This document shows positions 3,292 to 50,223 of a stretch of DNA of 64,000 bases, piece by piece. The stretch is from Candidatus Bathyarchaeota archaeon (GTDB lineage: Archaea > Thermoproteota > Bathyarchaeia > 40CM-2-53-6): NCBI GenBank assembly GCA_963726255.1, contig CAVSBL010000002.1:1376001-1440000 (forward strand). The letters are read 5' to 3'. A program made the position numbers and the translations under genes. The notes beneath the pieces are model-generated. The model saw only the letters and a list, made by a program, of their open reading frames with translations. It ran no database searches and was not told the origin of the DNA. How positions within the stretch are numbered: position 1 is the first letter of the stretch; each line of letters opens with the position of its first letter.

Positions 3292-5703
3292 TCATAGCCC
3301 TAATTTTCTGAACGCGAAGTACTTGGGGAAGTCTACGGCAAGCGTGAATATTGCAGAGAGTCCCAAGACAACGAGAACTTGCATAGTCGTGACGGATGGT
3401 AGGACAACGCCGTAGATTCCCAGCAAGGCAAATCCAATCACCGTAGCTAAGCTAGAGATGGCAAGTTCCCTTCCGGGTCGAGAGGCCCAGAAGTGTCCTC
3501 TCTCCCTCACAATAAGGACTCTAAACTGGCTGGTAAAGACTAGCGTAAGCAGCACAAAGGTCTGAAGGGTTCCCAGCTCCATGTGATAGTAATTCGTGCC
3601 GATGAAGATGACGATGGCACCTTCGACAACCAAGAGTAGGCCGATAATGAGTGAGGCTAACGTGATGTTCTTCACGTTCCAGATGTTTGGGCTGCGCGTG
3701 GTCTTCACGTTATCAGTGGCAAGTGACATTGTTACGAAGTCATTTGCAAACACCAACAAAACCATGCCCAGCACTGAGAGTACGACGTGGTGCAACCAGA
3801 AGAAGCCCAAGACTAGTATGCCGACGAACTGTATTACTTTCGTGACCTTGTTGACAACCCACGTTAGCATGCGCTGGTAGATTTGCCTGCTCGTGCCTAT
3901 TGCGTTGAGGATAACTCTGAGTCCGGGTTCGGTTAGAACTATGCTGGCAGATGCTTTTGCAACATCGGTTGAGTCGCTTACAGCTATGCCTACTTCCGCT
4001 TGTTTGAGCGCAGGTGAATCGTTCACACCGTCTCCTGTCATTCCTACCATGTGGCCTCTCGATTGCAGAAGTTTCACCAGTTTGTACTTGTCTTCTGGAT
4101 AAATCTCAGCCAATCCATCATATTCATCCAGAGCGCTTGCTTGATCCGCTTCTGATAGTTTCTCTAGATTTGACATCGAGTAGATTCGATTGCCAATGTC
4201 TACTTGGCTTGCGATCTCTCTGGCTATTGCCACGTTATCTCCTGTCAGCATTTTCGTCTTTACGCCTAAGCGGTTCAGTTCCCCTATCGTTTCCTTCGAG
4301 TCGGGTCTGGGAGGATCGGCCAGCGGGAGGAGCCCTACAAGCTTGAAGTTATCTAGGTCATTATCCTCTGATTTGGCGACCGCGATTGTTCGATAGCCTT
4401 TCTTGGATAATGATTCCACATTATTGTTGACATTTTTCCTAGTTTCATCGTCTACTTTGCATAGAGACAGAATTACTTGTGGTGCTCCTTTGGCTACTCT
4501 GAATCGTTTTCCGTCGTGTTCGACGATTGCTTCGGATCTCTTTGTCGCTGGATCAAATGGAGTAAACGACTCTTGCGTATATTGGATGGGGGCGGAGAGG
4601 TTCTTTGCGTAGTCGATCACGGCGAGGTCAATTACGTCTCTTATCTCCTCTTTCGAAGCTAGTCTCGCCATTATTGCGACGTCGTTCTTTTCGAACCCTT
4701 GGAAAGGGATAGGGTCGGTGACAGAGAGTTTGTTCTGTGTGATTGTACCGGTCTTGTCTAGGCATAGCACTTCCATTGATGCTGCGTCCTCAATGGAATT
4801 GAGCCTAGTTACTAGAGCGCCTTCTTTGGCAAGTTCCATTGCGCCCACCGCGAGAACGATGGCAAAGACTGCAGGTAGCGCGACTGGGACGGAACCCATG
4901 AGAAAGATTAGAGCGAACCTTACGATGGTTAGGGCGTCTACGACTCGTGTTAAAGCCGCGTCTAATACCACGAACGCCAGGGCCGCAATGCCAATGTACA
5001 TTGCATATTTGACAATGGCCGACATGATCTGCTCTTGGTGCGATTTGGGTTTGGCGATTTTCACTAATTCAGCAGTCTTTCCGAAGTATGTGTGGGCTCC
5101 CGTGTTGAGTACGAGAGCTTTCGCTTCGCCTCGCTTTATGATAGAACTCGAATAGAGAATCCCGGATTGATGTGCGGTCACGGGAAGTGATTCACCGGTC
5201 AACGCTGACTGATCAACGGACACTTCTCCAGCGACTATCTTGCCGTCAGCTGGTATTAGGTCGCCCAAACCAACCTGTATGATGTCGCCTGGAACTATTT
5301 CCCGAGCATCCTTGACGACCCATTCTCCATTCCGCAGAATTTTCGCTTTGATTGCTAGCCGTTTCTTCAGGAGTTCAAGTGCTTTCAGAGAGCTGCGCGT
5401 ATGGTGAAATCCGATGATAGCGTTCAGGGTCAGAAGCCCAAAGACTATTCCCACTTCCAGGTAGTGGCCTATGACGTATGAGAGAACCATCGTTAATTCC
5501 AAAAGCCAAGGCATTGGCCCCCAATACCGCGCCAAGAAATCGACAAACGGGTTCTTCCGCTTCTCCGATAATTCGTTGTAGCCAGATTCGCTAATGCGTC
5601 TCTTTGCCTCATTTTCGCTCAGACCGTTTGTTGACGTGCTCAATGCCGAGTACGCGGCTTCAATTGTTACGTCGGCAAAGTCTGCTGTCGTTCTAGTTGT
5701 CAT
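3292..5703 (-). CDS. P3A-type plasma-membrane proton-efflux P-type ATPase
   Basis: TGES, DKTGT, KGAPQ, DPPR, GDGVND; WGPMPW, PVALPAV and M6 ANDF are typical of P3A H+-ATPases. Confidence 0.9.
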   Translation of the reverse strand: MTTRTTADFADVTIEAAYSALSTSTNGLSENEAKRRISESGYNELSEKRKNPFVDFLARYWGPMPWLLELTMVLSYVIGHYLEVGIVFGLLTLNAIIGFHHTRSSLKALELLKKRLAIKAKILRNGEWVVKDAREIVPGDIIQVGLGDLIPADGKIVAGEVSVDQSALTGESLPVTAHQSGILYSSSIIKRGEAKALVLNTGAHTYFGKTAELVKIAKPKSHQEQIMSAIVKYAMYIGIAALAFVVLDAALTRVVDALTIVRFALIFLMGSVPVALPAVFAIVLAVGAMELAKEGALVTRLNSIEDAASMEVLCLDKTGTITQNKLSVTDPIPFQGFEKNDVAIMARLASKEEIRDVIDLAVIDYAKNLSAPIQYTQESFTPFDPATKRSEAIVEHDGKRFRVAKGAPQVILSLCKVDDETRKNVNNNVESLSKKGYRTIAVAKSEDNDLDNFKLVGLLPLADPPRPDSKETIGELNRLGVKTKMLTGDNVAIAREIASQVDIGNRIYSMSNLEKLSEADQASALDEYDGLAEIYPEDKYKLVKLLQSRGHMVGMTGDGVNDSPALKQAEVGIAVSDSTDVAKASASIVLTEPGLRVILNAIGTSRQIYQRMLTWVVNKVTKVIQFVGILVLGFFWLHHVVLSVLGMVLLVFANDFVTMSLATDNVKTTRSPNIWNVKNITLASLIIGLLLVVEGAIVIFIGTNYYHMELGTLQTFVLLTLVFTSQFRVLIVRERGHFWASRPGRELAISSLATVIGFALLGIYGVVLPSVTTMQVLVVLGLSAIFTLAVDFPKYFAFRKLGL

Positions 5704-41338: not shown

Positions 41339-41785
41339 TTAGTCGTTCAACACGAGCAGATCGTCCAAGATAGGCGTTTTAGCCCAGTCCCTTGCCGCCT
41401 TCTTCTTGCCATAACCTATCAAGTTCCGGTTCTCTGAGGTCATCAGACTGCAGAAAAAGGCCTTGCCACCCTTCGGCTTGACTTCTTCGATTGCACACTC
41501 GCCGTCGCGCAAAAAAACACACGGAGAATCAGAAAAAGCCCATTCCGAATGAACAACTCGCCCCGCCTCATCGTCTTTCCTCGCGGGACAGACGTAATAT
41601 CGCCTCTGACCAGATTCCAAAACGTAGTCGAACACAAGGAAACGAGTAAGGAGCTCTCTTTCAGACAAGCCGAGGAACCGAGCAATCCTTGGCAAATCAT
41701 CCGGGGAAAGGGCACAGGGATGAGTCATACAGCACTTGCCGCATTTCACACAAGGCTTTAGCGTTGAAGGATTCTTCACTCTCAA
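41339..41785 (-). CDS. YkgJ-family cysteine cluster protein
   Basis: CVKCGKCC...CVFL...C.IEEVKP. Confidence 0.78.
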   Translation of the reverse strand: MRVKNPSTLKPCVKCGKCCMTHPCALSPDDLPRIARFLGLSERELLTRFLVFDYVLESGQRRYYVCPARKDDEAGRVVHSEWAFSDSPCVFLRDGECAIEEVKPKGGKAFFCSLMTSENRNLIGYGKKKAARDWAKTPILDDLLVLND

Positions 41786-41832
41786 TGGTTGCCGAGAAGC
41801 CCCTACAGAAGAAGAATTGCATTACCGGAGTC

Positions 41833-42264
41833 TTAAGATAACGCTTGTAGGGCCGTAAGTGCCTTTGCTCTGTCCTGTGAGTAGCGCGTGTATAGTCTGC
41901 TCACATTGGATATGAATTTGATTTTGTCTCCGGCTACTGTGTAGAATTCTTGCATTCTGCCTTCGAGTGTCTTTGCTGCAGACATTGCATCTGTCATGGC
42001 CGCGTTACCCGGTAACGTTAGGTCCATTTTGTATGTTTCCTCGAAAATACCTGAGACTGGTTCGAGTAGGGAGTGATCGACGCTTTCTCTCGCTGTCCTC
42101 TCTAACTCCTTCTTCCGTTTGTCGCTGTTCTCCGCGAATTTTGTGAAGAGTGGCTTGGCTTGGGCGAAGGTGCTACTTGTGGCCAAGCCGCGGTAGAATT
42201 GAGCGGTTTGATCTTCGAGTTGCAGCGTAAACCTGAGAACCATGGTGAAGGTGGTGAGCTCCAT
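41833..42264 (-). CDS. Ferritin-like/rubrerythrin-fold protein (degenerate)
   Basis: Two LE.....FY helix-pair repeats; ExxH motifs absent. Confidence 0.6.
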   Translation of the reverse strand: MELTTFTMVLRFTLQLEDQTAQFYRGLATSSTFAQAKPLFTKFAENSDKRKKELERTARESVDHSLLEPVSGIFEETYKMDLTLPGNAAMTDAMSAAKTLEGRMQEFYTVAGDKIKFISNVSRLYTRYSQDRAKALTALQALS

Positions 42265-42297
42265 ACTTTGAGTCCCTCTCACACACCTTGCATGGCA

Positions 42298-43791
42298 CTA
42301 GAACCATCTTGAGATGACGACTTTTCTGTCCGTGAAGAAGTTGATCGCGTCGAAGCCTTGTCCGTGTAGGTCTCCGAAGAAAGAGTCTTTCCAGCCGCTG
42401 AATGGGAAGTAAGCTACAGGAGCCGCTATTCCTATGTTGACCCCGACGTCTCCTGCCAGTACTCTGTGTTTGAACTCTCTAGCCCACTTGCCGTTTTGTG
42501 TGAATATTGATGCTGCATTGCCATATGGGTTCTCATGGATGATTCTAAGAGCCTCTTCGAAGTCCTTGGCTCTGATCAAGCACATGACGGGTCCGAAGAT
42601 CTCTTCACTGCCAATCTTGCTCTTCGGGTTGACTTTATCGAATATTGTTGGGCCGATGAAGTAGCCTTTCTCGTAACCTGGCACTTTGATATTTCGACCG
42701 TCGAGGATCAATTCGGCCCTTTCCTTGATGCCGGTTTCGATGTAGGATAGGACCTTCTCTTTGGCTTGCGCTGAGCGAAGCGGCCCCATTTGCACAGTTT
42801 CATCTAAGCCGTAACCGGTTTTGACAGCCTTCGCGGCTTCCAATAGCTTCTTCTTCAGTTGCTCGTAGAAAGCATCGTCACCAACGGCTACTACGTTAGC
42901 ACCTGCTAAGCATCTTTGACCTGCACAGCCGTAGACTGAGTTCATTACAGCAGGCATGATCTTGTCGAGTGGTGCATCAGGCATAACCAAGAGGAAGTTC
43001 TTCGCACCACCTTGGCATTGTGCCCGCTTGCCGCCTGCAGTTGCTTTAGCGTAAACGTATTTCGCGACGGGTGTTGAGCCTACAAAAGACACGCCCCTCA
43101 CGTCTTTGCTTTCGAGAAGCGCATCAGAGACATCTCTTGATCCGTTCACGAGGTTGACCACGCCTGGTGGAAAACCTGCCTCGTCTACTAGTTCGAACAG
43201 CTTGTTTTGGGTCAGTGGGACTTCGCTTGAGGGCTTCAGGACATAGGTATTCCCGCACGCGACAGCATAGGGTAGGAACCACCATGGGATCATTGCTGGG
43301 AAATTGGAGGGGGGAAGGCATGCGAAGATTCCCAATGGCTGCAGGACACATTCCTCATCCAGACCGGGAGCGATGGTCTCTAAGTTGTATCCCATCATCA
43401 GCGTAGGAATGCCTGCCGCATGTTCAACACATTCAATCGCTCGTCGAACTTCGCCTCGAGCCTCGTCGATGGTCTTCCCATGTTCCTTCGTTAGGATTTG
43501 AGACACTTCTTCGAAATGCTCTTCCATCAAATTCTTGAGGGTGAACATGTAGCGTGCACGCGTGAGCGGAGGCGTTTCCCTCCATTCATCATAAGCAGCT
43601 TGGGCATACCGGATAGTCTCTTCCACCTCTTCTCTGGTGGACATTGGGACACGGGCTAGCACTTCGGTTGTGGCTGGGTTGACGACGTCTAGGGTCTTAG
43701 TCGATTTTGACGCAACCCATTCGCCGTTGACATAATTCTTTATGACTTCGGCCTGGGCCTCACGCCCTATGACCTTTGTAGCCTGTACCAT
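42298..43791 (-). CDS. mmsA: CoA-acylating (methyl)malonate-semialdehyde dehydrogenase
   Basis: NFPAMIP.W, SFVGST, GAKN, GCAGQRC, EEIFGP, SFFGDLH. Confidence 0.92.
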   Translation of the reverse strand: MVQATKVIGREAQAEVIKNYVNGEWVASKSTKTLDVVNPATTEVLARVPMSTREEVEETIRYAQAAYDEWRETPPLTRARYMFTLKNLMEEHFEEVSQILTKEHGKTIDEARGEVRRAIECVEHAAGIPTLMMGYNLETIAPGLDEECVLQPLGIFACLPPSNFPAMIPWWFLPYAVACGNTYVLKPSSEVPLTQNKLFELVDEAGFPPGVVNLVNGSRDVSDALLESKDVRGVSFVGSTPVAKYVYAKATAGGKRAQCQGGAKNFLLVMPDAPLDKIMPAVMNSVYGCAGQRCLAGANVVAVGDDAFYEQLKKKLLEAAKAVKTGYGLDETVQMGPLRSAQAKEKVLSYIETGIKERAELILDGRNIKVPGYEKGYFIGPTIFDKVNPKSKIGSEEIFGPVMCLIRAKDFEEALRIIHENPYGNAASIFTQNGKWAREFKHRVLAGDVGVNIGIAAPVAYFPFSGWKDSFFGDLHGQGFDAINFFTDRKVVISRWF

Positions 43792-43806
43792 ATCAGTTCA
43801 CTAAAC

Positions 43807-43821
43807 TTGGACACCGTCCAA
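43807..43821. promoter_or_regulatory. Candidate BarR/Lrp operator TTGGAC-ACC-GTCCAA
   Basis: Perfect 15-bp palindrome 15 nt upstream of the mmsA start. Confidence 0.65.
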
Positions 43822-43960
43822 TCGGTTATTAGCCTTACGGTGTAGTATCATCAAGGACAATGCGATTGACTTCGTCTGATAGTGGGGAAAGTTGTGCATA
43901 CCAAGATGCGGCTATCAGCTCTCACCTTTAGCCGCCTAGCCGCACATTTCCCAAGTGGTA

Positions 43961-45304
43961 CTAGGCAACCTCTTTGTCTGCTACCTCAAGCGCCCTGTCG
44001 AGCACGCTGACGCCCTGCTCGAATTCTTCTTTCTTGATTATCAGGGGTGGGGCGACGGTTAGGTAGTTGATCCATGTGTTGATGAACACACCGTTCTTCA
44101 TGCATTCTGCGGCGACGCGGTCAACAACCAAAGGTTTGCCCTGTAGCTTATCCTCACGAGTATTGAAGCCCTCCTTGGATTTCCTGTTGCGGACCAATTC
44201 AAGTGCCCAGAAAAGGCCAAGCCCGCGCACATCTCCTACTGAAGGATGTTTATCTTGCAACGCTTTCAACTGTTTTCCAATGGATTGCCCCATTTCACGT
44301 GAGCGTTCAACGAGGCCTAGCCGCTTGTATTCTCCGATGGCCGCGACCCCTGCTGCCAATGTCAGTGGGTGCGCCTCGTAAGTGTGACCGTGCGCGAAGT
44401 AATTCTCCTCAAAATAATCCGAAATTTCGCGAGTTGTTGCGGTGACACTCAGCGGAACATACGCACCAGTGATTCCCTTGGCAGTTGTCATAATGTCGGG
44501 TTTGACCTTCCAGTGGTCTACCGCAAACCATTCGCCTGCCCGTCCCCAACCTGACATGACCTCGTCACAAATCAGTAGGACTTCGTGTTGCTCTGTAATC
44601 TCGCGGAGGCGGGGAAGGTATTCGTCAGGAGGAACGAGTATCCCATTGGTTCCAACAATCGGCTCGACAATGATGGCTGCGACGTTCGATTCATGCTTAA
44701 TCATGTACTCAATATAGTCGGCGCATGCGATGCCACAGTTGGGATATTCCAACCCGAAGGGACAACGATAGCAGTAGGCATCTGGTCCAAAAATAACCCC
44801 TCCCATTTTGCCGGAAGGTTCAATCGGGTATCGTCGTGGATCACCCGTGGCTGCAATTGAACCCGCAGTCGAACCGTGGTAGGATGAGTAGCGGGAAATT
44901 ATCTTGTACTTGCCCGTGAACTGCCTCGCAATCTTGAACGCAGCTTCGTTTGCCTCGGTCCCTGACGTAGCGTAGAAAAACTTCTCAAGTCCTTGGGGCA
45001 TAACCTCCAAGAGAGATTTCGTTAATCTTGCGCGTACATCCGTGGTAAAAGATGGCGCTGCGTAGGGAAGCTTCTTGGCTTGTTCGCAGATTGCTTCAAT
45101 TACAGCCTTATTCCCGTGACCTAGATTGGAACACATCAGTTGGGATGAAAAATCAAGAAAACGCTGGCCTGACGCGTCTGTAAAGTAGCATCCTTCTGCG
45201 CTAACAATCTCGCGAGGAACCCACCCTTTTTGCGCTCGCCAAGTTCCATACGTGTACTCTTTTGATACTTTCACAACGTCCGACTGGGTAGCAGCCTGAA
45301 CCAT
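43961..45304 (-). CDS. Class III PLP aminotransferase (beta-alanine/taurine:pyruvate type)
   Basis: DFSSQL...LGH, SGTEANE, SYHG, DEVMSGWGR, AKGIT, HGHTY. Confidence 0.9.
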   Translation of the reverse strand: MVQAATQSDVVKVSKEYTYGTWRAQKGWVPREIVSAEGCYFTDASGQRFLDFSSQLMCSNLGHGNKAVIEAICEQAKKLPYAAPSFTTDVRARLTKSLLEVMPQGLEKFFYATSGTEANEAAFKIARQFTGKYKIISRYSSYHGSTAGSIAATGDPRRYPIEPSGKMGGVIFGPDAYCYRCPFGLEYPNCGIACADYIEYMIKHESNVAAIIVEPIVGTNGILVPPDEYLPRLREITEQHEVLLICDEVMSGWGRAGEWFAVDHWKVKPDIMTTAKGITGAYVPLSVTATTREISDYFEENYFAHGHTYEAHPLTLAAGVAAIGEYKRLGLVERSREMGQSIGKQLKALQDKHPSVGDVRGLGLFWALELVRNRKSKEGFNTREDKLQGKPLVVDRVAAECMKNGVFINTWINYLTVAPPLIIKKEEFEQGVSVLDRALEVADKEVA

Positions 45305-45341
45305 AATGCATCCATTCCTTTTACCAGAATTTACGCTTAAT

Positions 45342-45387
45342 AGTATTACTGTCCAATTCCTGCGTCAAAATTCTGGACGATGTACAG
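45342..45387. promoter_or_regulatory. Two BarR-like boxes upstream of the aminotransferase
   Basis: AGTATT-ACT-GTCCAA (45342-45356) and CTGGAC-GAT-GTACAG (45373-45387), centres 31 bp apart. Confidence 0.5.
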
Positions 45388-45428
45388 TGCGGTATTGAGG
45401 CCTAAGGGAATATTCTCTATTGCCTCAG

Positions 45429-46778
45429 TTAGGAAACGTAGACAATCATGAGATCCATTAGATTCGTACCCGTCTCGCCAGTGCGTATGGCGTCGTGTAA
45501 TCTTCTGAAGGCGCTTGAAGAATCATGCATCCTTAAGCATTCAACGGCATCTATACCAGCCCTCCTAGCGCGTTCTAGACTGTGGCCGTCAACTATCGCC
45601 CCTGCTAGGTCAGTGGGGCCGTCAGTTCCATCGGTACCGATGGAAGCGATGGTGATTTTCTTACTGCCTGCTATTTTCAGGGCTGCCGCCAATGCCAATT
45701 CTTGATTTCGACCTCCTTCTCCGTGCTCCCCCCGAATAGTTACGGTAGTTTCGCCGCCCGCGACCAAGACACATGGAGAGTTAAACGGCTGCTCGTTCGT
45801 CTCGATTTCTTTTGCAATACTTGCCAAAATGATACCAACGTCCTTTGCCTCCCCCTCGACACTGGTTGATATCGTCACGGGGCGTAATCCAAGTTCGGTC
45901 GCCGTTCTCACGGCAGCCCGACAAAGCATCGGATTCTCCGCAAAAATAACATGGTGTGCCCTTACGCCCATCCGTTCAAAGTCAGTTGACTTCGGAGTTT
46001 CTTGATCAATGTCTGCTTTCTCGAAGTAATCCCTTGCCGAGCTGGGAATTTTGTCCCACAGATCATATCTTACAAGAACATGCTTTGCATCGGAGAATGA
46101 AGTCGTATCCGAAACGGTAGGCCCCCAAGGAAGACCTACAACTTCATCGATGGCGATTAAACTAACAACTTCGGCCTGGTGCGCAGCCATTGACAGTTTT
46201 CCGCCACCCACTTGAGAGAGATGCTTTCGAACAGTGTTCATATCTTCGAGGGGTGCCCCAGAATTCAACAGCAAGTTACAGACTTTTCTTGCATCCTCAA
46301 GGGTAATGCCTTTCGGGGGAAGCATGGTTAAGGAAGTACACCCGCCCGTAACACAGACAATTACAAGGTCATCCTTCTCTGCCTTTCTGGCTATCCGAAG
46401 AATTTCCTCACCTCCTATGGCGCTGCCCTCGTCAGGTATTGGATGGCCCCCTTCCATCACCCTAATCTTCTTGGTTTTGCGACCGCCTCCTTTCTTCTCG
46501 ACGACAACGCCTTCTCTAATTTTGTCTTGGAGAATGTCTTCAAGAGCACACGCGGCAAAGGTAACCTGTTTGCCTCCACCGATAAGGAATATGTCCTTAA
46601 TTTTCTTTAGATCGTATCTGAGCGGTCCTATCTTGAGATCGTCGTTAAGCTTGACCTGCTCCATGATGAGGTCATATGAGTTTACTTGTTCTAGGGCGCC
46701 CTCGATGATTTTAAGGACTGCCTCTCTTCCACGAATGTTTCCCTTAGACGTAAGCTCGTCCGAATTTTGTATTACCAT
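45429..46778 (-). CDS. Glycerate 2-kinase (MOFRL/DUF4147) family kinase, divergent
   Basis: GHPIPD, RKHLS, GPT, GGETTV, GGRNQE, GTDGTDG, TGTNLMD. Confidence 0.88.
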   Translation of the reverse strand: MVIQNSDELTSKGNIRGREAVLKIIEGALEQVNSYDLIMEQVKLNDDLKIGPLRYDLKKIKDIFLIGGGKQVTFAACALEDILQDKIREGVVVEKKGGGRKTKKIRVMEGGHPIPDEGSAIGGEEILRIARKAEKDDLVIVCVTGGCTSLTMLPPKGITLEDARKVCNLLLNSGAPLEDMNTVRKHLSQVGGGKLSMAAHQAEVVSLIAIDEVVGLPWGPTVSDTTSFSDAKHVLVRYDLWDKIPSSARDYFEKADIDQETPKSTDFERMGVRAHHVIFAENPMLCRAAVRTATELGLRPVTISTSVEGEAKDVGIILASIAKEIETNEQPFNSPCVLVAGGETTVTIRGEHGEGGRNQELALAAALKIAGSKKITIASIGTDGTDGPTDLAGAIVDGHSLERARRAGIDAVECLRMHDSSSAFRRLHDAIRTGETGTNLMDLMIVYVS

Positions 46779-46787
46779 AAGCTAGTA

Positions 46788-48041
46788 CTAGGCTCCGACT
46801 GGCAAAACATATGGTCCTCCGGGAACTATTGCCGTCCTCAGTTCTTGATTTGATTGCATACCGCATAGCCGCAGAGCTTCGTCAACTGACTTGGCGTGCT
46901 CCATTTTCATTGTCCTTACGGTCTCGGGGTCAACCCCGTCGGTGACGACTATGACCTTGGCCTTGGACAGGATTCTTGCAAGTATCTGGATGTTATCCTG
47001 ATCCTCAACGGGCTCGTCCGTCTTCAGCTTCTTAAGGACGTCTTGGGGATCCTTCCCAAGGGACATGTACTTCTGAAAGACCTTGTGGCCCACGCCGTCT
47101 CTACACTCGCTTGCCAGAACGATAGTCCCGCCTTTTCTTATCATCAATTCTCCGACAGCCAAACCTTTGACACACTGATACAAGTTCCTGTCGAGTGGAT
47201 ATCCACCATTTGTTGTCACGACGACATCAAAGAGTTCGTGAAATTCCACTTTCATGTCTTCAGTAACTGCTTTGGCCGCTTTTCTGTGAGTTGGTCCTGG
47301 TTCTCCAATGAATAGGTGCGTCATGTTCTTTTGGGAGTCTACAGTGACGTTTACGATGAGGTGCAGTCCGCTCTTCTGACCTCCTTGAACAATATCCTCG
47401 TAGATGGGGTTGCGGTCTAGAAGTCCGTATCTAGCCCTATCATGCGCTACCATGTCGAAGCTGTGGTTCTTCAGAATTGTAATCTTGCCCGCGATACCCG
47501 GTACGATGCTTTTGTATCCTCCGCCGAATCCTGCGTGAAAGTGCGGAACCACTAACCCGGCGGCGATCTTCAAGTCCGATTCCATAAACCGCCTGTTGAG
47601 GAAGACTGGGGTGCCTCTCGTAGTTGTTCCAAGTGAAACCAATTCCCCGTTGGCATCGTGGTTTTCAATGCAAAACTTGTCTACAATCGTTTGTCCAATA
47701 TTCTCGATCAAATCAGCGCGGCTCATTGGCGCGTGAAGGCCATTTGCAACTAGAATTGTGATATTTTCTCTTGCGACTCCAGCCTCCTCAAGCTCCCCCA
47801 AGAGGAGGGGAACGATTACGTCGTTGAATGCGAAGCGAGTATTGTCGCTGACAACAACGCAGACCTTCTTGGCCTTAAATCCGAGGAAGAAGGAGCGATT
47901 CTCCTTGAAATAGCTGGAGATCTTGCTTTGAGCGTAATTTCTGGGATCAGTAATTGCTCTCGCATCTTTAGGCCTAAGTATTCTTACTTTTCGGGGTGCC
48001 TTGAGGTTGACGTACTTCTGTCCATAAGGGAGTTTTACCAT
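46788..48041 (-). CDS. LarA-family nickel-pincer-nucleotide-dependent 2-hydroxy-acid racemase/epimerase
   Basis: SDNTR, ANGLH, NHD, PHFHAGFGGGYK, NHS, GGYPLDRNLYQCVK. Confidence 0.92.
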   Translation of the reverse strand: MVKLPYGQKYVNLKAPRKVRILRPKDARAITDPRNYAQSKISSYFKENRSFFLGFKAKKVCVVVSDNTRFAFNDVIVPLLLGELEEAGVARENITILVANGLHAPMSRADLIENIGQTIVDKFCIENHDANGELVSLGTTTRGTPVFLNRRFMESDLKIAAGLVVPHFHAGFGGGYKSIVPGIAGKITILKNHSFDMVAHDRARYGLLDRNPIYEDIVQGGQKSGLHLIVNVTVDSQKNMTHLFIGEPGPTHRKAAKAVTEDMKVEFHELFDVVVTTNGGYPLDRNLYQCVKGLAVGELMIRKGGTIVLASECRDGVGHKVFQKYMSLGKDPQDVLKKLKTDEPVEDQDNIQILARILSKAKVIVVTDGVDPETVRTMKMEHAKSVDEALRLCGMQSNQELRTAIVPGGPYVLPVGA

Positions 48042-48069
48042 CGTTCTTGTCGTCCATCCTCGTTCACGA

Positions 48070-49356
48070 TCAAACTGGCCTGCGATAGTTCGCCCCTGCA
48101 TACGTTGCCGACTCGCCTAGTTCTTCTTCTATCCTTAGCAATTGGTTGAATTGGGCGGTTCTTTCACTTCTGCATGGAGCCCCGTTCTTGAGTTGACCTG
48201 CACCTATGGCAACGGTTAGGTCGGCGAGCCATGTATCCTCCGTTTGGCCCGATCTTTCAGAAGCGACGACACTGTAGCCGTTCTTGACGGCATATTGCGC
48301 GACGTCCAAGGCCTCACTCAATGTTCCTATCTGATTGACCTTCCAGAGTACGGCATTGGCCGCGCGACTTTCTACTCCCGTTCGAACCCGTGACAAATTA
48401 GTGACGAAGAAATCGTCACCCACTATCTGAATTCGCCCCAATCTCTTAGTGACCTCAATGAAGCCCTCAAAATCATCTTCATCGAATGGATCCTCGATCG
48501 ATTTAAGCGGCAACGTGTTGACCAACTCTTCGTAAAGATCCATAAGGTTCTCGCGAGAGAATTCTTTGCCCATCAGATGGTACTTGCCATACTTCCTATC
48601 GTAAAGATGACTTGCAGCCGCGTCCATCGCGAGTATGAACTTATCTTCATAACCAAGTTCCTCGATTGCTCTGAGAATCTCGTCAAAGGCGTCATGAGGG
48701 TCGCTTATGCCGGGAGGCGAATAAGCTCCCTCATCGCCTACGTTCAAAGCGTACTTTGATCGTTTCGCGAGCCGTTCTCCTAGTTTGAAATAGACCTCAG
48801 CGCTGAGACGCATAGCCTCTGAAAAACCCTCGGCTCCAATTGGCATAGCATTGAATTCTTGAAAATCTAGGTCAGTTGCACCAAGTTTTCCGCCGTTTAT
48901 CATAATTATCATGGGAACAGGAAGTATGTGCGCTTGGGGACCCCCGATGTATCTGTAGAGGGGAAGACCGAGAGCCTCTGCAGCGACCCGTGCAACTGCG
49001 AGAGAAACGCCGACGATGGCGTTCCCTCCTAGTTTCGACTTATTCTCAGTTCCATCGAGTTCAATTATCGTCGAGTCTATCTCCTTCTGGTTTCTGACAT
49101 CCATCCCGGTCACTTTAGGTCCGATGACCTCATTGACATTTCTTACAGCAGTCAAGACGCCTCTTCCAGCATATCTAGAACCACCGTCTCTCAGTTCGAA
49201 AGCCTCGTATTTTCCTCTGGATCTACCGGACGGAACATCAGCTCTTGCCCTTGCTCCCCCTTCGGCGATAACATCTACCTCTATCGTTGGGTTTCCTCTT
49301 GAATCCAGTATCTCCCTCGCCCTCACTGATTTGATTCTGAAGATTTCTTGAGACAA
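48070..49356 (-). CDS. eno: Enolase homolog with altered active-site residues
   Basis: REILDSRGNPT, QEF, GDEG, IEDP, VGDD, KVNQIG, NQLLRIEE; but SERSG and NGGKL. Confidence 0.88.
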   Translation of the reverse strand: MSQEIFRIKSVRAREILDSRGNPTIEVDVIAEGGARARADVPSGRSRGKYEAFELRDGGSRYAGRGVLTAVRNVNEVIGPKVTGMDVRNQKEIDSTIIELDGTENKSKLGGNAIVGVSLAVARVAAEALGLPLYRYIGGPQAHILPVPMIIMINGGKLGATDLDFQEFNAMPIGAEGFSEAMRLSAEVYFKLGERLAKRSKYALNVGDEGAYSPPGISDPHDAFDEILRAIEELGYEDKFILAMDAAASHLYDRKYGKYHLMGKEFSRENLMDLYEELVNTLPLKSIEDPFDEDDFEGFIEVTKRLGRIQIVGDDFFVTNLSRVRTGVESRAANAVLWKVNQIGTLSEALDVAQYAVKNGYSVVASERSGQTEDTWLADLTVAIGAGQLKNGAPCRSERTAQFNQLLRIEEELGESATYAGANYRRPV

Positions 49357-49564
49357 ACCGATTTACCAGCACACTAAGTCAATTCTACGCGCGTTTCTTG
49401 AACAAGGACTTATCCTTTCGAACTGTGGCTTATCTTCGACGCAATTGGGTGCAAAACGGCACAATGGCTCGTTCGAAAGATGGAGTCAATGTCAGGTATT
49501 CTTCTCGATATGCTTTCGGATTGAACCCGGGTGTTCCTTACGCGTGCGGCGGTCTCTGGCCAGC

Positions 49565-50026
49565 TCAAGTCTCCATTCTTGGATCCTCTTTTAGTATTCT
49601 TGCGACAACTTGCGTGCTGGTTCTTTCAATATCGCTCATGTTGCTGAGGCGTTCCAGTTTTTGCATATAGTCATCTCTGTCATGTGCTCGGATTAGGACT
49701 ATGAAGTCGACGTCTCCAAGAATATAATATACAGCCCAGACTCCAGGGATCTTGGATAGTCTGAGTCCAACTTTCTGGTGATACCGCGGGCCATACTTGG
49801 CTCGAACAAGCACCGCTGCAAGATAGTCGTACCCTAATCTTGCAGGATCGAGTTTCGCATAATACCCTTCAATTACCTTCTCTCGCTCTAGCCTGCTGAT
49901 TCTGTAGTGCACCGTTGATTTCGGGATGCCAAGCCTCTTAGCGATTACCTGCAGTGGAACCCTGGAATCTTTTTGAAGTATCTTTAGCAGGGTCCTATCG
50001 ATCTTATCCAACTTTGCCACTTCCAT
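49565..50026 (-). CDS. Lrp/AsnC regulator of the BarR/Grp subgroup
   Basis: IPKST..YRI, GYYA, AKYG..YH, IPGVW.VY..LGD.DF, ERTSTQVV match recalled Sulfolobus Grp/BarR signatures. Confidence 0.85.
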   Translation of the reverse strand: MEVAKLDKIDRTLLKILQKDSRVPLQVIAKRLGIPKSTVHYRISRLEREKVIEGYYAKLDPARLGYDYLAAVLVRAKYGPRYHQKVGLRLSKIPGVWAVYYILGDVDFIVLIRAHDRDDYMQKLERLSNMSDIERTSTQVVARILKEDPRMET

Positions 50027-50223
50027 TCGGCACACAACGCCCCATTTGGACAGTGGAGCTTTTCTTTAAGACACTATCGGAATGTTGGGCTCAAGAATCC
50101 GATACGCGATGAAGAAAGCGTTTAGCCAATTTTACTGGCGAACCTTGTCGGGTAGCTGGGATTGGCTGCTCAACATATATTTTGGAGAGACATGCACGAT
50201 AGACGGGCCTTGAAGGTGGAACC

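Follow-up and report, generated by a model that had tools for sequence, protein, structure and literature searches.

As a rule, the enolases proper are regarded as a family with one function. In the glycerate branch, which is known from the non-phosphorylative Entner-Doudoroff pathway, the serine cycle and the use of tartrate or glyoxylate, a class-II glycerate 2-kinase acts first and enolase follows (PMC2063504; 1X3L; 2B8N), and the enzymes of this branch used here for comparison are the T. tenax glycerate kinase (PMC2063504), P. horikoshii PH0495 (1X3L) and T. maritima TM1585 (2B8N). Homologues of the lactate racemase LarA, which depend on a nickel-pincer nucleotide (NPN), have been reported in the part of PMC11770544 cited here to racemise glycerate and to epimerise 2,3-dihydroxybutyrates in vitro. 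The present work concerns a stretch of 64,000 nucleotides from Candidatus Bathyarchaeota archaeon (positions 1,376,001 to 1,440,000 of contig CAVSBL010000002.1, or G000:C2:1376001-1440000; hereafter the window), the minus strand of which carries a cassette of genes for a MOFRL-type kinase, a LarA-type racemase and a variant enolase that is referred to as ENO2. The conserved unit in this cassette is the pair formed by the MOFRL kinase and ENO2, not the trio, with the racemase being an accessory, and the cassette probably encodes a route, not described so far, from glycerate or a closely related acid to phosphoenolpyruvate (PEP). A literature search found no published description of the pairing of enolase with a MOFRL kinase and did not find "glycerate racemase" as a described term; the main texts of the LarA papers PMC7583248 and, for the part of it cited here, PMC11770544 mention neither a kinase nor an enolase. 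The statement of the initial annotation that it knew of no described operon with a dedicated glycerate racemase stands for the operon and its physiological role, but not for the racemisation itself, which had already been demonstrated in vitro (PMC11770544, cited in part). The three genes of the cassette are as follows.

48070..49356, minus strand: ENO2 variant enolase, 428 aa, TTG start (Enolase_N + Enolase_C)
46788..48041, minus strand: LarA homologue, a predicted nickel-pincer-nucleotide 2-hydroxy-acid racemase/epimerase (Lar_N + LarA_C)
45429..46778, minus strand: MOFRL (class II) glycerate-2-kinase-type kinase of the ENO2-paired subtype (DUF4147 + MOFRL)

The initial annotation, which was made from the letters alone, had described three co-oriented genes separated by about 30 and 10 nucleotides (nt), and this description is borne out by the minus-strand open reading frames (ORFs) 48070-49356, 46788-48101 and 45429-46778. 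The racemase ORF is open from 48101, and the ATG at 48041 is taken as its likely start because the match to Pfam does not start before residue 26 of the long ORF; with this start, the gaps are 28 nt between ENO2 and the racemase and 9 nt between the racemase and the kinase.

The pairing of the kinase with ENO2 is seen from the gene neighbourhoods of the ENO2 homologues. In a search of 401 genomes of the phylum, 13 matches at 63-69% identity to ENO2 were found, with all other enolases being at most 57% identical; the genome's own canonical enolase is 50% identical to ENO2. A MOFRL orthologue (47-53% identity) adjoins ENO2 in 12 of these 13 loci and the thirteenth is located at a contig end. A scan for the motif SERSGQTEDT, with one genome per species, identified 39 genomes, all of which are metagenome-assembled genomes (MAGs) and most of which are from Bathyarchaeia, the other carriers being Thermococci-labelled MAGs, Methanomassiliicoccales, Methanomethylicia, Terraquivivens, Thermoplasmatales, Micrarchaeia, Hadarchaeum, Njord- and Heimdallarchaeota, Desulfurococcales and three Chloroflexota. 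After removal of seven duplicates, the non-redundant set comprised 47 ENO2 loci. In 35 of these, a MOFRL kinase adjoins ENO2 or is at most two genes away, the adjacent orthologues showing 42-63% identity to the window kinase, and in all 12 loci without it the DNA on one side of ENO2 stops after about 0.5 kb or less at the end of the contig or locus. A LarA homologue, by comparison, is near ENO2 in 9 of the 47 loci. The full trio is adjacent in 8 loci (viz. the window, L038, L080, L083, L089, L095, L100 and L105), in shuffled gene order and in both domains, two of the loci being from Chloroflexota; the synteny of LarA, MOFRL and enolase genes, for which the initial annotation had proposed a search, is hence recurrent. 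One of these loci, L080, which is from another family of the phylum, contains the whole gene set of the window inclusive of the AsnC regulator, the aminotransferase and the methylmalonate/malonate-semialdehyde dehydrogenase (MMSDH) described below. Close orthologues of the racemase are scarce among the 60 relatives. In the congener G011, the racemase is 69% identical and is found together with the kinase and ENO2 in a different order, and in three genomes with a racemase homologue at 45-48% identity neither an enolase nor a kinase is nearby.

The members of the pair are additional copies in the genomes that carry them. In a MOFRL survey of 151 genomes, two matches were found in 8 genomes, all 8 of which are ENO2 genomes (contig ends truncate two of the second copies); a ninth ENO2 genome, in which the pair lies at a contig end, shows one unpaired copy, and each of the remaining 108 genomes with a match contains a single copy. 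When the second enolase copies were compared, the other enolase read SHRSGE in 8 of 8 ENO2 genomes. Two peculiar arrangements of the pair were also seen. In L072, L074, L075 and L077, which are from one family of the phylum, the pair is present in a fixed housekeeping neighbourhood, with the gene for ribosomal protein L15e upstream and those for NAD kinase, prefoldin and an SRP54-type GTPase downstream, and the other enolase of this family is very divergent (about 361-366 bits on TIGR01060) with its His motifs kept. In L108, from one Bathyarchaeota MAG, a second and very divergent enolase-like gene (L108:5339-6586; end branch 1.19; neither SHRSGE nor SERSGQ) is found between ENO2 (4012-5295) and the MOFRL gene (6673 onward).

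ENO2 matches Enolase_N with 187.7 bits and Enolase_C with 341.9 bits, and its TIGR01060 score is 530.6 bits, the cut-off being 300. Its best solved relative is the M. jannaschii enolase 2PA6 (498 bits, alignment nearly gapless), and the columns conserved with canonical enolases and 2PA6 are DAAAS, IEDP, GDD, KVNQ, GDEG, FQEF, RS and LKNG. The residues retained are the D/E/D ligands of the metals, the Lys that acts as base, the Glu acid pair, Arg-Ser for the phosphate, and Lys and Gln for the carboxylate, these residues being assigned by the yeast numbering. In an alignment of 15 ENO2 with 7 canonical archaeal enolases, the metal ligands, KVNQ, FQE, R-S and the carboxylate Lys are kept in all 15 ENO2, as is GDEG (GVEG in 4). 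However, at four other places all 15 ENO2 differ from the canonical enzymes: GAS of loop 1 is replaced by G(R/K)S (in the window GRSRG against GASTG), GGKHAG of loop 2 by GGKLAA (the window reads GGKLGA), SHRSGE by SERSGQ (His to Glu, and the nearby Glu to Gln) and AKYN by AQ(Y/F)N. The same replacements are visible against 2PA6. In the S. elongatus enolase, the carbonyl of the loop-1 Ala binds the second metal, and the His before Arg-Ser together with Glu168 holds a water 3.5 Å from C3 of PEP (PMC8996150, cited in part); in the M. tuberculosis enzyme, the loop-2 His is in contact with both the phosphate and the 3-hydroxyl group of 2-phosphoglycerate (2-PG) (PMC10619443, cited in part). Based on these published roles of the replaced residues, the changes in ENO2 cluster at the C3 side of the substrate and at its phosphate. 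They may also be pairwise charge-compensating, with H->E paired to E->Q and A->R/K paired to K->Q.

At least 120 clusters of ENO2 relatives (90% identity clustering) showing 64-98% identity, all of them named enolase or phosphopyruvate hydratase, are present in metagenomes. The loop-2 motif GG(K/R/L)L is found in 113 of 120 of these clusters, and SERS(G/A)QT in 104 of the 104 proteins (of 120) in which the His-to-Glu position is readable. The proteins that are 98% identical to ENO2 carry Candidatus Bathyarchaeia as their source name. In a quick maximum-likelihood tree (IQ-TREE) of 65 enolases, the 38 rows with the signature form one clade (Shimodaira-Hasegawa-like approximate likelihood-ratio test 99, stem 0.23) that is nested among archaeal enolases, a grouping that is partly expected since the rows were picked by motif or by similarity to the query. 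The Chloroflexota ENO2 lie inside this clade next to a Heimdallarchaeota row, and due to this placement horizontal spread is indicated; the distribution points to a kinase-ENO2 module that would have spread horizontally among uncultured archaea and some Chloroflexota.

The racemase matches Lar_N and LarA_C with 168.7 and 137.6 bits. The initial annotation had named equivalents of H108, H174, K184, H200 and K298, and all of these, and that of Q295 as well, were confirmed by alignment to 2YJG (in LarA numbering, in part that of PMC11770544). The motifs SDNTR, GLH, PHF, GGGYKS, NHS and YQCVKG align with 2YJG and an equivalent of the NPN-binding Arg75 is present, so that the protein has the catalytic His pair, the NPN-carrying Lys and the Ni-binding His. 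It reaches no NCBIfam equivalog cut-off among the LarA model NF033504 (381 against 460) and the malate racemase models NF052593 and NF052595 (331 against 500 and 327 against 462). At the four specificity positions of the family (LarA1 175, 176, 358 and 359; PMC11770544, cited in part), it has F, H, D, N, a combination found in none of the classes described. Lactate racemase was rejected because these residues are not F, F, W, E/Q and the score is below the cut-off, and a lactate-specific LarA, which the initial annotation had named as a refutation of its reading, is not supported at the sequence level, the lactate-racemase residues being missing. Malate racemase was likewise rejected, D and N being present instead of H/Q then K, with no Lys at 359.

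The Asp at the position of LarA W358 is found in all 7 readable racemases linked to ENO2 (of two others, one is truncated and one, divergent and 7 kb away, does not align there) and in none of the 19 unlinked LarA homologues, where unlinked means that there is no ENO2 within 1.5 kb on each side (7 kb for three). Of these 19, 12 have Trp at 358, and they include the nearest relatives of the window enzyme. The LarA tree requires three changes of the Asp358 state. Either by convergence or by repeated loss, this residue tracks the linkage to ENO2. With Asp where the Trp of lactate racemases packs on the lactate methyl, the racemase pocket appears suited to a polar side chain. A lactate 2-kinase making 2-phospholactate for F420 was considered and set aside, the Asp358 pocket being unsuited to lactate and 2-phospholactate having no C3 leaving group for an enolase. 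LarA homologues are plentiful in this order, with at least one match in 60 of 61 genomes and 4-7 in several (7 in G036), and those read mostly have the Trp-type lactate-racemase signature. Two more Lar_N-like genes of the same genome (G000:C4:2033-2989 and G000:C2:583601-584530; L004 and L005) lie on a very long branch (4.23) and have PHP(F/Y)LQY after the second catalytic His.

The kinase matches DUF4147 and MOFRL with 189.1 and 127.4 bits, and its best solved relatives are PH0495 (1X3L, 326 bits) and TM1585 (2B8N, 236 bits). PH0495 is a characterised glycerate kinase forming 2-PG. The class-II motif, D-x(0,2)-G-x(0,1)-D-[GP]-x(4)-[APS]-[ACDGST] (PMC2063504, cited in part), is kept as DGTDGPTDLAG, and so are all 62 of the positions that are conserved at 95% or more across 63 MOFRL proteins. 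The ENO2-paired kinases differ from 32 unpaired MOFRL proteins at four fixed positions only (K95, T144, S311 and H418), and two of these residues, K95 and H418, are shared by the paired type and PH0495. With the conserved positions kept and just these four fixed differences, there is no support for a changed kinase pocket, and the kinase looks like an ordinary class-II glycerate 2-kinase. The initial annotation had held that both the kinase and the enolase deviate at substrate contacts; this is confirmed for the enolase, in which two His are replaced, but not confirmed for the kinase. The kinase scores below the cut-offs of two NCBIfam glycerate kinase equivalogs (213 against 550 for the Thermoproteus-type and 169 against 670 for the Thermoplasma-type), both of which are narrow models, as the genome's other MOFRL gene also falls below them (247 and 164). 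MOFRL glycerate kinases accept L-glycerate at 13-34% of the rate with the D form (PMC2063504, cited in part).

The genome also contains the ordinary counterparts of the pair and the genes for the racemase cofactor, for which the initial annotation had suggested looking outside the window. A second enolase (ENO1) with canonical motifs is present at C2:1515970-1517226 (584.9 bits), and ENO2 is accordingly not the sole enolase of the genome. The neighbours of ENO1 are a nitroreductase and a PNPOx-like gene, by which the possibility that it is a copy of the ribosomal superoperon is ruled out. A second MOFRL gene is located at C2:420408. None of larB, larC and larE is within the 64-kb window, as had been noted initially; larB and larE are next to each other near C2:1005-1006 kb, and the position of larC is C2:2167 kb, with all scores above the cut-offs (LarB 236 bits against 175, LarE 307 against 150, LarC 375 bits in Pfam). 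The second enolase, the second MOFRL gene and the three lar genes are all on the 2.36-Mb contig of the window, and their assignment is for this reason untouched by the contamination estimate of 9%.

On the two sides of the cassette there are further genes on the same strand. The initial annotation was right about the trio but had left these recurrent genes out.

49565..50035, minus strand: Lrp/AsnC-type transcriptional regulator, candidate cassette regulator (HTH_24/HTH_AsnC + AsnC_trans_reg domains)
43961..45304, minus strand: class-III (omega-type) aminotransferase, recurrent accessory (Aminotran_3, 305 bits)
42298..43791, minus strand: methylmalonate/malonate-semialdehyde dehydrogenase-type aldehyde dehydrogenase, accessory (TIGR01722, 543.9 bits against a cut-off of 448.5)

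The regulator lies 208 nt upstream of ENO2, and AsnC homologues (51-54% identity) adjoin the cassette in L080 and L089. The aminotransferase, whose closest solved relative is the taurine:2-oxoglutarate aminotransferase 6JIX (295 bits), is separated by 124 nt from the kinase and by 169 nt from the aldehyde dehydrogenase, and it is probably a transcription unit of its own. The contigs of one wetland metatranscriptome (nanopore, 95-99% alike) match the MMSDH, aminotransferase and AsnC genes (window 42476-45363 and 49648-50017) and do not cover 45368-49591; as these are contig data, the gap says nothing on expression or on operon limits. One of the contigs stops 59 nt upstream of the aminotransferase start codon. 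Past the MMSDH gene, a 149-aa ORF with no Pfam or NCBIfam match begins 15 nt after the stop and is followed on the same strand by a CxxCxxCC (putative Zn/Fe-chelating) protein (both within window 41339-42282, minus strand).

Among the 47 loci, a class-III aminotransferase is near ENO2 in 8, a D-2-hydroxyacid dehydrogenase in 4, an SDR in 4, an AsnC regulator in 3 and an MMSDH-type dehydrogenase in 2. The 8 aminotransferase loci include Bathyarchaeia-type loci and two from Chloroflexota. Four of them (the window, L080, L095 and L100) also have the adjacent racemase, and in another, L081, the LarA-like gene is divergent and 7 kb away. An MMSDH homologue (44% identity) follows the aminotransferase in L080, and a different Aldedh-family gene precedes it in L095. 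AsnC occurs together with the aminotransferase in the window and L080, and the D-2-hydroxyacid dehydrogenase, possibly a hydroxypyruvate reductase, adjoins the pair in its 4 loci. Genes recurring in two to four loci each are those for a dihydropyrimidinase-like amidohydrolase, PreA-like DHO_dh + Fer4, an OTCase-like protein, an M20 amidohydrolase, a PALP enzyme, the large subunit of a Mo-hydroxylase, an amino-acid permease or ATP-binding cassette (ABC) importer and a luciferase-like oxidoreductase; L081 has both an ABC importer and an M20 amidohydrolase. In L082, L116, L113 and L090, which are from distant lineages, the dihydropyrimidinase-like amidohydrolase, the PreA-like DHO_dh with 4Fe-4S and the OTCase-like gene are found beside the pair, and this suggests that the pair is connected with catabolism of the reductive pyrimidine or the hydantoin type. 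When the aminotransferase and MMSDH are included, the recurring neighbours resemble reductive pyrimidine and beta-amino-acid catabolism, with no firm connection to the pair. In L080 only, an MtmB-like methyltransferase and a corrinoid-binding protein (L080:4872-6916) are present between the racemase and the AsnC-aminotransferase-MMSDH block, which hints at a methylated amine as the upstream substrate in that genome.

The most likely function of the cassette is the conversion of glycerate, of either enantiomer, via 2-PG to PEP, and we give this reading an even chance of being correct. It is favoured by the adjacency of kinase and ENO2, the recurrence of the trio, the enolase residues kept by ENO2, the ordinary look of the kinase, the intact racemase residues and the Asp358 of the linked racemases, the larBCE genes, the in vitro racemisation of glycerate by LarA homologues (PMC11770544, cited in part) and the D-2-hydroxyacid dehydrogenase beside the pair in 4 loci. 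The AsnC regulator would control a catabolic cassette of ENO2, NPN racemase and MOFRL 2-kinase, which the genome has besides its housekeeping MOFRL kinase and its canonical enolase; the racemase would interconvert L- and D-glycerate, the kinase would phosphorylate O2 of D-glycerate and ENO2 would remove water from the 2-phospho acid to yield PEP. The data show the gene order, the conserved pair and trio, the retained catalytic residues, the replacements specific to the subfamily and the larBCE genes; the substrate, the direction of the flux and any role of the aminotransferase and aldehyde dehydrogenase in supplying the acid are what we infer here. The sequence of steps from L-glycerate to D-glycerate, 2-PG and PEP, as put forward in the initial annotation, is still the simplest reading. 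However, several observations weigh against glycerate. An enolase with the canonical motif (SHRSGE) is present beside ENO2 in 9 of the 9 ENO2 genomes examined and an unpaired MOFRL gene in each of the 9 ENO2 genomes surveyed, and with these housekeeping enzymes at hand a plain glycerate route would be redundant. The two substrate-contact His are Leu and Glu in 15 of 15 ENO2 and His in 7 of 7 canonical enolases, a pattern that is what a substrate change at C3 would look like. Further, the omega-type aminotransferase, the aldehyde dehydrogenases and the pyrimidine-catabolism-like neighbours are not explained by glycerate. If, instead, the same logic (racemisation or epimerisation at C2, phosphorylation of O2, elimination across C2-C3) is applied to a glycerate analogue altered at C3, then the substrate could be a 2,3-dihydroxy C4 acid (4-deoxy-threonate/erythronate or threonate/erythronate) or a 3-amino acid, e.g. 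isoserine, and ENO2 would have a new enolase-family activity giving a substituted enol phosphate, or PEP and ammonia. This is a tentative alternative, clearly less probable than glycerate. It is favoured by the only active-site changes of ENO2 being at the contacts of the C3 hydroxyl or water and of the phosphate, by their fixation throughout the clade (15 of 15 aligned, 38 tree rows), by the pair being an extra copy beside standard enzymes, by the gain in both the racemase (Asp358) and ENO2 (Glu for His) of a carboxylate near the side-chain position, by the recurrent omega-aminotransferases and beta-amino-acid/reductive-pyrimidine-type genes, and by the epimerisation of 2,3-dihydroxybutyrates by LarA homologues in vitro (PMC11770544, cited in part). 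However, the kinase pocket shows no departure from the characterised glycerate kinases, the charge-compensated changes of ENO2 may rewire the same chemistry, the stem of its clade (0.23) is short, none of the candidates has a known abundant source, and the loci hold no recurrent gene for the fate of a substituted enol phosphate. The corresponding claim for the family, that the ENO2 clade is a new activity in the enolase family proper, fed by its own kinase with an acid that is not 2-PG at C3, is similarly doubtful; candidate substrates would be 2-phospho-2,3-dihydroxybutanoate or 2-phospho-erythronate/threonate, leading to a substituted enol phosphate, and 2-phospho-isoserine, leading to PEP and ammonia. 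The acids 3-sulfolactate and 2,3-bisphosphoglycerate were rejected as substrates of ENO2, as, with Glu in place of His, a negative charge comes to lie next to a leaving group that is itself anionic.

The aminotransferase loci also allow the cassette to be seen as the tail of an amine or amino-acid catabolic island, in which the aminotransferase and an aldehyde (or 2-hydroxyacid) dehydrogenase would turn an amine or amino acid taken up by the cell into the hydroxy acid, and the racemase, the kinase and ENO2 would then carry this acid to PEP. This explanation fits either substrate model and differs from them in making five to six genes one pathway, and we regard it as rather unlikely, slightly more so than the C3-altered substrate. 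Consistent with it are the aminotransferase in 8 of the 47 loci, four of these with an adjacent racemase, the aldehyde dehydrogenase before or after the aminotransferase in the window, L080 and L095, the co-occurrence of AsnC and aminotransferase in the window and L080, and the ABC importer and M20 amidohydrolase of L081. However, 39 of the 47 loci have no aminotransferase within the DNA seen, the 124- and 169-nt gaps suggest separate transcription units, and the dehydrogenase passes the MMSDH model, an enzyme that makes acyl-CoA from a beta-keto semialdehyde and not a 2-hydroxy acid. Further, an aminotransferase and MMSDH on their own constitute the standard route for beta-alanine and beta-aminoisobutyrate. 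Lastly, the cassette could be a chance grouping of a lactate racemase, a glycerate kinase and a spare enolase of glycolysis, in agreement with the naming of all ENO2 relatives in databases as enolase or phosphopyruvate hydratase and with the score of ENO2 far above the TIGR01060 cut-off. However, the adjacency is kept across phyla and domains while the order is shuffled, ENO2 is a separate clade with fixed active-site changes, and the racemase lacks the F, F, W, E/Q that its nearest unlinked relatives have; this explanation, which is already contradicted by the synteny and residue data, is very improbable.

The significance of the cassette is as follows. ENO2 has fixed changes at the C3 contacts, is a second copy and is locked to its own kinase, and it is due to this either a rewired isozyme or an unrecognised PEP-feeding reaction. 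Its hosts are abundant uncultured subsurface archaea (Bathyarchaeia, Hadarchaeia, Caldarchaeales-type, Asgard) and Dehalococcoidia. The Asp358 signature is a testable new specificity class of LarA with a physiological context built in; such a context was missing for the glycerate racemase activity reported in vitro in 2024, and the linkage of Asp358 to ENO2 offers one. If ENO2 should have a new activity, then the Asp358 racemases would be a matching and hitherto unassigned specificity class of nickel-pincer enzymes, and the aminotransferase and reductive-pyrimidine-like neighbours would be a sign that the acid comes from a compound containing nitrogen.

In comparison with the known systems, the racemase is similar to LarA and its homologues (PMC11770544, cited in part; PMC7583248) in having Lar_N + LarA_C, the catalytic His pair, the NPN-binding Lys/Arg/His, the Gln/Lys carboxylate site and larBCE in the genome. 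However, its F, H, D, N is unlike LAR (F, F, W, E/Q), MAR (x, x, H/Q, K), HGR (Y, F, H/Q, T) and GntE (E, V, A, H), and the glycerate-active LarAH43 of Enterocloster asparagiformis keeps Trp358 where the window racemase has Asp (PMC11770544, cited in part). Second archaeal enolase copies with a proposed division of function are also known from the paralogues arCOG01169 and arCOG01170 (PMC4390880, cited in part), although that analysis contrasts copies inside and outside the ribosomal superoperon, whereas here neither enolase is in a ribosomal context; the cited part of it mentions no kinase partner and no His replacements. ENO2 has the same fold as the canonical enolase EC 4.2.1.11 (2PA6; S. 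elongatus 5J04, PMC8996150; M. tuberculosis, PMC10619443; the two papers cited in part) with the catalytic residues kept, but it differs by loop-2 His->Leu, by Glu for the His before Arg-Ser, by the nearby Glu->Gln and by loop-1 Ala->Arg/Lys, and in the genomes examined its clade is always an extra copy. With the glycerate branch, the cassette shares the kinase family, the domain pair, the class-II motif and an expected product, 2-PG, that feeds an enolase-family enzyme. However, the pathways on record rely on the housekeeping enolase and do without a racemase, whereas the kinase of the cassette is a second copy fixed beside a dedicated variant enolase, which an NPN racemase and an aminotransferase often join.

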